DNA of 64,000 nucleotides from a virus (Duplodnaviria; Caudoviricetes). The position numbers and the translations under genes are program-made. The notes under the pieces were generated by a model. That model was not told where the DNA came from and made no database searches. It worked only from the letters and a program-made list of their open reading frames with translations. The DNA lies in IMG/VR virus record IMGVR_UViG_2871875081_000002, positions 1 through 64,000 of that record; one strand, written 5' to 3'. This document shows, piece by piece, positions 15,168 through 17,291 of this stretch (its first letter is position 1; each line of letters begins with the position of its first letter).

Positions 15168-15950
15168 ATGAAGGAATTAAGAAAGAAAACATTTAAAAAT
15201 GGTGTCGTGTATTGCCTTCAATTAGAAGATGGCTTTCTAGTTGAAACTACAGACACGTTCTTACCTTATTACACCAAAGATGCAATAGGCAGACATCAAA
15301 ACAAGCTTGATAACAATGAGCTTGGCGACCGTACAGAACGTTGGATGATTGGAGTATCTACAATGAGTGGGTGTCCAGTAAGATGCAAATTTTGCGCTAC
15401 AGGCAACATGAAACGTTATCGCAATCTTACGGCAGAAGAAATTGTAGAGCAGGTTGAATTTGCCATCAATAAGGCAGGTGCTGACCCAAGCAAAGCAAAA
15501 GAGTTTAAAGTTAACTATACTCGTATGGGCGAGCCATTTCTTAATATTGATGCAGTCAAAGAGGCTATTCGTATTATTACGGAGAAATATCCTAATACTC
15601 ATCATTATGTATCAACGATTGGTATTAAGGGTAGTGATTTCTCTTTCATTAATGGAAATATCACATTGCAGATTAGTTTGCATTCATTTGATGATGACAA
15701 GCGAAATTGGTTGATTCCTTATAAGAACAAAATGACAATTAAGGAGTTGGGACAGATTCGCACAGAAAGCAATCTGAAGACTACAATCAATCTTACACTT
15801 GTTGACACTTCTGATTTTGATGCAGAAAAGCTGAAAAAATGGTTTGATAAGGAGCATTTCTTCGTGAAGTTGTCTCCTATTAATGTGAATAACATATCAG
15901 AGAAAAATCACCTCGGCAATGGTGTTGTAGAAGGAATTAATTTAGTATGA
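15168..15950 (+). CDS. RlmN/Cfr-like radical-SAM enzyme lacking the C-terminal catalytic segment
   Basis: VSTMSGCPVRCKFCATG…RNLTAEEIVEQV…TRMGEP…STIG…LQISLHS…KLSPIN track RlmN motifs; ORF ends before any CGQL motif. Confidence 0.88.
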   Translation: MKELRKKTFKNGVVYCLQLEDGFLVETTDTFLPYYTKDAIGRHQNKLDNNELGDRTERWMIGVSTMSGCPVRCKFCATGNMKRYRNLTAEEIVEQVEFAINKAGADPSKAKEFKVNYTRMGEPFLNIDAVKEAIRIITEKYPNTHHYVSTIGIKGSDFSFINGNITLQISLHSFDDDKRNWLIPYKNKMTIKELGQIRTESNLKTTINLTLVDTSDFDAEKLKKWFDKEHFFVKLSPINVNNISEKNHLGNGVVEGINLV

Positions 15951-16714
15951 AAAAGGGTATTTTCAGATATAGAATTATCACAAATCTGAATTGCAACATG
16001 AACGAAAGTACAGGAGTAAACGGAAATTGTTACTTCTGCTACCAAAAGTTTAAGTCACCATTGCGACTGGATTGTGATAAGATGGAGGAAACTTTGAAGA
16101 AGGTTGGTGTTCTGAAAAGAGCAACTATCATGGGAGGCGAAAGCTTGCTCAATCCAGATTTGGTAAAGATTGTAAAGATAGTCAGCAACTATACGTCAGA
16201 TGGTATTTGTCTTGTTACAAATGGAATACTGCTTAATGAGGACATCATCGTAGCATTGAAAGATGCTGGATTAACTGAGGTTGCTATCAGTGTGTCTTCT
16301 ATCGAGCAGTACGAAAGACGTAGAGACATGGCACTTCAGTGTAAAGAGATTATTCCAAACACAAGAATAAACATTCCTAAGTGTAAGGAAAGCTTGAATC
16401 CACAATTGTTGGAAACAATACTGGAAGATGGCTTCTATAGCATTGTTTGTGAAGATTTACAGGCTAGATATGGTGAGATAAGACTCCCAAAAGGTTCTGT
16501 AAAGGTTGGCGATGACGGGTATGGATTTTACGATTACAAGTGGAATGGTCATACATTTGGAGTATTTGGCAATTATGGGAAGTACAACCGAAGTGATATT
16601 ATCGTAACTCCTCTTGGAAATTTCTGCGATTGGGAAAAGTACTGCAAGGCCGTTAAGAACAATGAACTTGTAAGAAGAAACAATCATATTGATGATGACA
16701 AAATTGTGCATTGA
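15947..16714 (+). CDS. Radical-SAM enzyme with atypical CX11CX2C cluster motif
   Basis: CNMNESTGVNGNCYFC, GGE, VTNG, AISV core motifs. Confidence 0.82.
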   Translation: MKKGIFRYRIITNLNCNMNESTGVNGNCYFCYQKFKSPLRLDCDKMEETLKKVGVLKRATIMGGESLLNPDLVKIVKIVSNYTSDGICLVTNGILLNEDIIVALKDAGLTEVAISVSSIEQYERRRDMALQCKEIIPNTRINIPKCKESLNPQLLETILEDGFYSIVCEDLQARYGEIRLPKGSVKVGDDGYGFYDYKWNGHTFGVFGNYGKYNRSDIIVTPLGNFCDWEKYCKAVKNNELVRRNNHIDDDKIVH

Positions 16715-17135
16715 TTTCGGAAGTGGCTATAATCCAAAAACTGGATATAAAACTTGCGATGTAACAACCCTTCCACAATTGGACTTCCAGTATGATGGAA
16801 AAGATGAGATTGTCGGACTAAGAGAAAAATCAGTAGATGTATTCTATCTAAGAAACGTTGTTCATCATATCCCAGACTTACAGAGAACCTTCACAACCTT
16901 GAAGAAGTATCTGAAGGTAGGTGGAAAGCTGGTTATCATTGACTGCAATTAAGGTCATTACAAGACAAATGTATTTCTTGACAATTTGTGGTATAGATTT
17001 GTTGGCAACAACCACGAAATCTTTATCAGTAAACAGTATAGAGATTACATCAATGTTTTGATCAAGTTAGGCTTTAAGCAATTATATTATAAATCATTTA
17101 AAGAAAAGGAGATTACTAAGTATGAATGCAATTAA
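16689..17135 (+). pseudogene. Class I SAM-dependent methyltransferase interrupted by an in-frame TAA (16950-16952)
   Basis: IDFGSG motif I, RNVVHHIPD…LKVGGKLVIID; the frame stays open for 60 more codons to TAA at 17135. Confidence 0.75.
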
Positions 17136-17241
17136 GAATCAATTGGAAAAGATGGGTTACGATTATGCAGTAGCAATCGCAACAAAGGCTGAAATTGAGA
17201 ATGGAGCTGCTTGTGGTCAGCTCGCTATTATTTGTGAGTAA
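17122..17241 (+). CDS. 39-aa peptide matching the RlmN C-terminal catalytic-Cys segment (…GAACGQL…)
   Basis: MNAIKNQLEKMGYDYAVAIATKAEIENGAACGQLAIICE, translated by hand; absent from the ORF track. Confidence 0.8.
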   Translation: MNAIKNQLEKMGYDYAVAIATKAEIENGAACGQLAIICE

Positions 17242-17291
17242 GTAATTAATCACCCTCTCCTGTAAAAGGGAGAGGGTAAAAAGAAAAGAAT

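Follow-up and report, generated by a model that had tools for sequence, protein, structure and literature searches.

RlmN, which installs the C2-methyl group at A2503 of 23S rRNA and at A37 of tRNA (3RF9/3RFA, 5HR6/5HR7, and 6FZ6), and Cfr, a C8-methyl synthase (9P0P), share a homologous radical SAM core and are the textbook case of methylation via a protein-bound methylene radical. The crosslink between protein and RNA fragments once a proton has been abstracted by a second cysteine, C118 in RlmN and C105 in Cfr, and mutation of this cysteine traps the adduct (PMC9692996; 10.64898/2026.02.27.707579). Met176 may stabilize the thiyl radical that results (PMC9692996). The role of this second cysteine is known from laboratory mutants trapped on RNA, the C118A/S variants of RlmN and the C105A/S variants of Cfr, which stop at a Cys-S-CH2-adenine crosslink (PMC9692996; 10.64898/2026.02.27.707579). 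An earlier note on the DNA considered here had drawn on this chemistry, and did so correctly: both cysteines are needed to break the Cys-CH2-adenine crosslink (PMC9692996; 10.64898/2026.02.27.707579). These laboratory variants are engineered dead ends of a single polypeptide. A comparable division of labor is known from GrcA/YfiD, the 'spare part' of pyruvate formate-lyase, including its homologue in phage T4: there, the catalytic loop of the radical enzyme is supplied by a small separate protein that docks on the large one. That system differs in belonging to the glycyl radical family and in repairing a damaged enzyme rather than serving as the normal partner of a truncated core.

Here, these systems are compared with a locus from an 87-kb record of a crAss-like phage, described as a gut phage, of which 64,000 nucleotides were analyzed as one stretch (hereafter, the window). 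Judged by homology, the phage encodes a two-piece RlmN/Cfr-type radical SAM enzyme that consists of a 260-aa core (positions 15168–15950, plus strand) and a 39-aa peptide (positions 17122–17241, plus strand). The phage system has in common with RlmN and Cfr the CX3CX2C motif, the MGEP, ST, and SxH strands, the beta-sheet extension, and an AACGQL loop that follows a helix-strand unit. It differs from them in that the Cys loop is a separate 39-aa product, in that Cys118/Cys105 is replaced by Gly and Met176 by Thr, and in that the HhH2 domain is absent. The residue missing from the laboratory variants is also missing here, yet the phage state is natural, is conserved in a large clade, and places the Cys on a replaceable peptide. 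No paper on a phage RlmN that is split or lacks C118 came up in literature searches; new here are the probable loss of the Cys before the split, the accompanying loss of Met176, the rejection of the second peptide Cys, the fusion and tandem variants, and the association with NAD salvage.

The core was identified with TIGR00048, with RlmN (6fz6, 3rf9) and Cfr (9p0p) structures, and by Foldseek with a homolog model. RlmN is its best family match, aligned over positions 102–287 of the 355 in TIGR00048 (E 9e-23) with 80.7 bits, a score that does not reach the equivalog cut-off of 290; the core also falls far under every cut-off of the NCBIfam Cfr and RlmN models. The closest solved structures are likewise RlmN (6fz6, 3rf9, and 5hr6) and Cfr (9p0p), and among cultured relatives Kehishuvirus 'tikkala' is the closest, with 70% identity between the enzymes. 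The core retains the SAM-binding strands, the beta-sheet extension, and the CX3CX2C [4Fe-4S] cluster motif (Cys69, Cys73, and Cys76; 15372–15395, plus strand), which is invariant across all alignments. It lacks the N-terminal RNA-binding HhH2 domain: the 56 residues upstream align to the beta-sheet extension, and the homolog model has three strands ahead of the core without a helical domain. At the other end, the C-terminal Cys355 loop is absent, and the ORF stops about 20 residues past the KLSPIN strand without a tail Cys. A single-sequence AlphaFold prediction of the window enzyme reached a pLDDT of 37. The RNA-backbone contacts of Cfr (Ser103/151/153/187), when mapped on the phage core, proved to vary even between families. 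The isoelectric points of cores and peptides gave no separation of classes.

The resolving cysteine normally lies seven residues ahead of the first cluster Cys, and in the phage core this position is Gly62 (codon 15351–15353, plus strand). HMMER pairs RWMIGVSTMSGCPVRCKFC, encoded at 15339–15395, with DRATLCVSSQVGC of wild-type E. coli RlmN (3rf9) and with CISSQCGC of Cfr (9p0p), so that Gly62 falls on Cys118 and Cys105, respectively; MAFFT alignment with E. coli RlmN again placed Gly62 on Cys118. The claim that Gly replaces the resolving cysteine is therefore borne out by two alignment methods, and the homolog alignment that the earlier note had proposed for this column found Gly to be invariant in 8 diverse split-type enzymes and nearly so in 21. 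Among representatives at 50% identity, 32 of the 40 tips of the Gly clade carry Gly at the column, a few members have His, Tyr, or Asn, and one protein (P0149) has Asp. This conservation argues that Gly at the C118 column is no chance substitution. A different cysteine could in principle fill the resolving role, which the earlier note had named as grounds for discarding the claim. The core has four cysteines, namely the three cluster ligands and Cys16, and Cys16 was rejected as a general resolver because it is missing outside the crAss-like relatives; no other conserved core Cys is available for the role.

Loss at this site is accompanied by changes elsewhere. A column comparison found Met176 in 28 of 28 canonical sequences and Thr or Ala at this column in the C118-less clades, with Thr118 (codon 15519–15521, plus strand) in the window enzyme. 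Tyr279, Asn286, and Gln122 are likewise lost in the C118-less clades, and the same comparison detected no conserved acid or base gained within the core. As read from these columns, the residues assigned to the resolving half-reaction are lost jointly.

The missing tail is found on the peptide, which is homologous to the last helix, the strand, and the AACGQL loop of RlmN and which ends in GAACGQLAIICE. Cys31 (17212–17214) is the counterpart of RlmN Cys355, consistent with the earlier description of a methyl-carrier Cys on a free peptide: the Cys355-type loop is indeed on this ORF and not on the core. Taken alone, the peptide had no match in Pfam, NCBIfam, PHROGs, or the PDB. A peptide profile, however, matches the tails of fused RlmN-like proteins (residues 274–303 of P0199, E 3e-7; P0184, 4e-7; P0195, 1e-6) at the expected place, indicating that the helix, strand, and Cys loop of an RlmN-type enzyme have become a separate peptide. 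Within the window this profile matches the peptide's own ORF alone, and the 87-kb genome has one copy. Among 76 crAss-like loci with 34 distinct nucleotide versions, pN/pS for the peptide is about 0.135 (54 synonymous versus 26 non-synonymous variant codons), and 67 of 98 nucleotide changes fall at codon position 3; such purifying selection identifies the ORF as a real gene. Directly past its stop codon, a 9-bp G+C-rich stem-loop, ACCCTCTCC ... GGAGAGGGT, is present at 17252–17277, with an A-rich run behind it, and may mark an operon end or act as an RNA-stabilizing hairpin.

The same small ORF lies behind the enzyme gene in Kehishuvirus, Moorella phage MTATph1, Pectobacterium phage Arno18, Yersinia phage P778, and Vibrio phage D479. 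A 21-sequence profile was too diverse for the locus scan. Among 91 non-identical loci drawn from viral contigs and phage records, all of Gly type except one of Asp type, 88 have the peptide gene, and these are distributed among phages of Bacteroidota, Firmicutes, and Proteobacteria. In two of the three peptide-less loci the enzyme region is truncated or rearranged, whereas the third has no peptide gene within the examined flank; in variants that lose the peptide, the end of the enzyme is gone too. Residues past the Cys loop are variable, with C-terminal extensions of up to ~100 aa in some lineages.

The peptide of the window has a second cysteine, Cys38 (17233–17235), in the IICE motif that the earlier note had described and had offered as an alternative means of resolving the adduct. 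This alternative did not survive comparison with relatives: IICE becomes IITD, IIAE, IIVETE, IIGE, or IIEG in close relatives, and Cys38 is missing in Kehishuvirus, Moorella phage, Arno18, and others, so that it cannot be a general resolver and was rejected as such. A single Cys is invariant across the peptides. In a subclade of proteobacterial-phage peptides (L104, L108, and relatives), a second Cys occurs three residues after the first (ACGQMCLV, ACGMMCLV), a position other than that of the IICE motif in the window and not a general one either.

Natural variants bear on how the two pieces fit together. One protein (P0127; L090, 44–991) is a fusion of an N-terminal peptide module with a core that has Gly at the C118 column, and another (P0149; L092, 67–2154) joins peptide, core, and a second radical SAM domain; relative to RlmN, both arrangements are circular permutations. 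In Vibrio phage D479 (L004, 3800–4081), a single ORF carries two tandem peptide modules, each with an AACGQM loop. An AlphaFold (AF2) model of P0127, built from an unpaired alignment of cores and peptides, reached a pLDDT of 88.4 and a pTM of 0.89, and Foldseek returned RlmN and Cfr as its top matches. Within it, the peptide helix (residues 2–10) has a pLDDT of 93 and the following segment (residues 14–17), a strand or bridge by DSSP, one of 85, while the Cys loop is at 57–72, similar to the RlmN loop in being flexible. From this model it is inferred that the peptide strand complements the core barrel, which would place Cys31 at the position of RlmN Cys355. Two further rearrangements were encountered in core genes: an intein-like insertion right behind the cluster motif of an RlmN-like core (P0124), and an HNH_3 endonuclease placed N-terminal to a 92%-identical core within one gene call (P0006).

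A survey of 150 representatives at 50% identity divided the family into three classes. No enzyme with Gly at the column has a tail Cys. Where the column holds Cys, an [AG]CGQ tail is present in complete sequences, and most of the eight sequences that lack it are short. In the third class the column is Ile, Val, Thr, Met, or Asn, and an SNCGQ tail is still fused to the enzyme. This third class, to which P0185, P0199, and the radical SAM protein of Bacteroides phage Versailles belong, falls in the same derived clade as the split enzymes and likewise misses the resolving Cys, but has residues other than Gly at the column and has the tail fused; its exactly four conserved cysteines are the three cluster ligands and the tail Cys. 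A FastTree phylogeny of 97 tips, with E. coli RlmN as its root, gathers every non-Cys sequence except one into one clade (60 tips; SH-like support of 0.966), and the Gly clade sits inside this larger group (40 tips; support of 0.877). Fused forms with an intact tail Cys belong to the C118-less clade, so that, given the E. coli RlmN root, the resolving Cys was probably lost before the split into two pieces. A related subclade (P0210, P0223, and P0201 in L097, L100, and L101; KIGVSLSSGC...YCFT) lacks both Cys118 and the tail Cys, keeps the helix and strand fused, and has no peptide gene nearby; its context is cellular-looking, with pyruvate kinase, GreA, DprA, and topoisomerase I. On two independent contigs (L098 and L099), the fused C118-less gene P0199 lies behind genes for an isochorismatase-family protein and an FAD-dependent oxidoreductase.

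Two genes separate core and peptide in the window. The first (15947–16714, plus strand) encodes a second radical SAM protein of 255 aa with a MoaA/viperin-like N-terminal half. Its cluster loop is stretched (CX11CX2C), while the orthologue in L093 (1284–2084) has a normal CX3CX2C, which identifies the stretch as an 8-residue insertion. Several lineages have this gene next to the module, and P0149 combines both in a single fusion. The second (16689–17135, plus strand) encodes a small class I SAM methyltransferase (Pfam Methyltransf_11) that is interrupted by an in-frame TAA at 16950–16952. At this codon, 15 relatives that share the upstream sequence read CAA (Gln), and the orthologue in L093 is intact (144 aa, PHROG 5399). 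The TAA, peculiar to the window genome, is a sequencing error or else a nonsense mutation of recent origin. The pair lies between core and peptide in 24 of 91 loci and downstream of the peptide in L093, L108, and L113, and 53 of 91 loci have enzyme and peptide alone. The pair, which most lineages lack, is accessory to the module. No recurrent protease or transporter was found near the module in 27 lineages defined at 75% identity, and Pfam, NCBIfam, and PHROG searches of the core, the second radical SAM enzyme, and the neighbors gave no match to RRE/PqqD-like or SPASM domains.

In other lineages, genes of NAD salvage recur beside the module. NAMPT and/or NMNAT-Nudix genes directly adjoin it on the same strand in 6 of the 27 lineages (L104, L111, L116, L119, L120, and L131), with several gene orders among the six and with the module between the two genes in L104; in a seventh lineage (L096), PncA, NAPRT, and NMNAT lie upstream. 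The pair of NAMPT and NMNAT-Nudix, termed NARP2, occurs in ~1.1% of phages (10.1101/2024.02.11.579819). Of five cultured carriers, three have a NAMPT-like gene at another genomic site. The window phage has no NAMPT near the module, and a TDSYK motif considered as a sign of NAMPT in the window was rejected as a chance match inside the terminase. Other neighbors include RNA-ligase-like (L105, L095), NrdD, and ThyX-like genes, and the fused phage relatives that keep both cysteines sit among tRNA genes.

What the two-piece enzyme does with its peptide can be framed by how the crosslink ends. The reading preferred here, with a probability of roughly 0.38 and by analogy with the trapped variants, is stoichiometric use of the peptide, which would remain linked to its target through an S-CH2 bridge. 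By RlmN/Cfr chemistry, Cys31 would be S-methylated by one SAM, a second SAM would give the 5'-deoxyadenosyl radical that abstracts a hydrogen atom, and the thiomethylene radical would add to an sp2 carbon of the target, which is putatively an adenine-type base, whether in DNA, in RNA, or in a free nucleotide. The steps through radical addition follow from homology. With the general base absent (Cys118 being Gly62), Met176 lost, and no substitute gained, the core would be unable to carry out RlmN-type fragmentation, and the outcome would be that of C118A RlmN. A detachable peptide would allow the core to turn over, while one reaction would use up a fused C118-less enzyme. The covalent peptide-target adduct is plausible on this analogy, and the tandem peptide of D479 fits a stoichiometric need, although the duplication occurs in just 1 of the 91 loci. 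Against the consumed-peptide reading, a sister group of fused C118-less enzymes keeps the tail Cys, where an adduct would be suicidal, and P0127 and P0149 tether the peptide to the core, where an irreversible adduct would destroy the enzyme. These self-destroying forms suggest that some other ending of the cycle may exist, and the Asp of P0149, or the His, Tyr, or Asn of other members, could serve as bases. The main rival is accordingly an ordinary split methyltransferase in which the peptide is regenerated each cycle, the crosslink is resolved by water, a group on the substrate, a peptide residue, or another base, and RNA of the phage or host acquires m2A or m8A. This is somewhat less likely. 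It spares the fused relatives, P0127, and P0149 from a single turnover, and Cys118 acts as a base and not as an obligatory disulfide partner (PMC9692996), so that it is replaceable in principle; the tRNA genes around the both-cysteine relatives and the RNA-ligase-like neighbors are also in keeping with an RNA methyltransferase. C118A/S RlmN and C105A/S Cfr nevertheless fail to resolve the crosslink, the core has no compensating conserved acid or base and has lost Met176 too, the RNA-binding HhH2 domain is absent, and regeneration of the peptide gives no reason for a split kept across distant phages.

The identity of the acceptor, and whether the peptide is itself the product, divide the remaining readings. 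As a variant of the consumed-peptide reading, the acceptor could be a small molecule, namely an adenine or nicotinamide nucleotide in free form (NAD+, ADP-ribose, or a signaling nucleotide, for example). Absence of the HhH2 domain makes a nucleotide target as possible as an RNA target, and the partner radical SAM protein resembles MoaA and viperin, which act on NTPs. The NARP2 pair, found in ~1.1% of phages (10.1101/2024.02.11.579819), adjoins the module in 6 of 27 lineages, with the PncA, NAPRT, and NMNAT genes of the seventh and the isochorismatase-family gene ahead of a fused C118-less relative pointing the same way. A small-molecule acceptor is still unlikely, since the window phage is without NAMPT nearby and the association may merely reflect the nucleotide-metabolism regions of large lytic phages, given the NrdD, ThyX-like, and RNA ligase neighbors. 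A more speculative extension of the consumed-peptide reading, itself improbable as a whole, would make the system a radical 'peptide ligase' in which each peptide is fired once and is joined by a methylene-thioether to the adenine-type or nicotinamide ring of a nucleotide, an immune signal, or an RNA, as a covalent trap or tag in host takeover or counter-defence; such a role would fit the frequent position next to NAD+-reconstitution genes. Alternatively, the peptide would be the product, as in RiPP pathways, with the core modifying Cys31 by S-methylation or radical follow-up, the second radical SAM enzyme and the methyltransferase adding steps, and the modified peptide acting elsewhere. A small conserved peptide gene beside radical SAM enzymes and a methyltransferase does resemble a RiPP cluster, and some lineages have C-terminal extensions of varying length, up to ~100 aa. 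The conserved part of the peptide is, however, exactly the part homologous to the structural tail of RlmN, while the residues past the Cys loop vary; no recurrent recognition domain, protease, or exporter is nearby, and 53 of 91 loci have only enzyme and peptide. A RiPP-like role is for these reasons hard to favor.

The consumed-peptide reading and its main rival both carry consequences beyond this phage. The phage clade is a natural version of the laboratory 'mutant' state, with the reactive Cys placed on a replaceable peptide. Either outcome is directly testable in the cultured carriers Kehishuvirus 'tikkala', Pectobacterium phage Arno18, Yersinia phage P778, and Vibrio phage D479. Should the cycle end in some other way, a second crosslink-resolving mechanism would be at hand, with relevance to the chemistry of Cfr-type antibiotic resistance. 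If instead the peptide ends attached to its target, this would represent a new enzymatic peptide-nucleobase conjugation and a new phage strategy.
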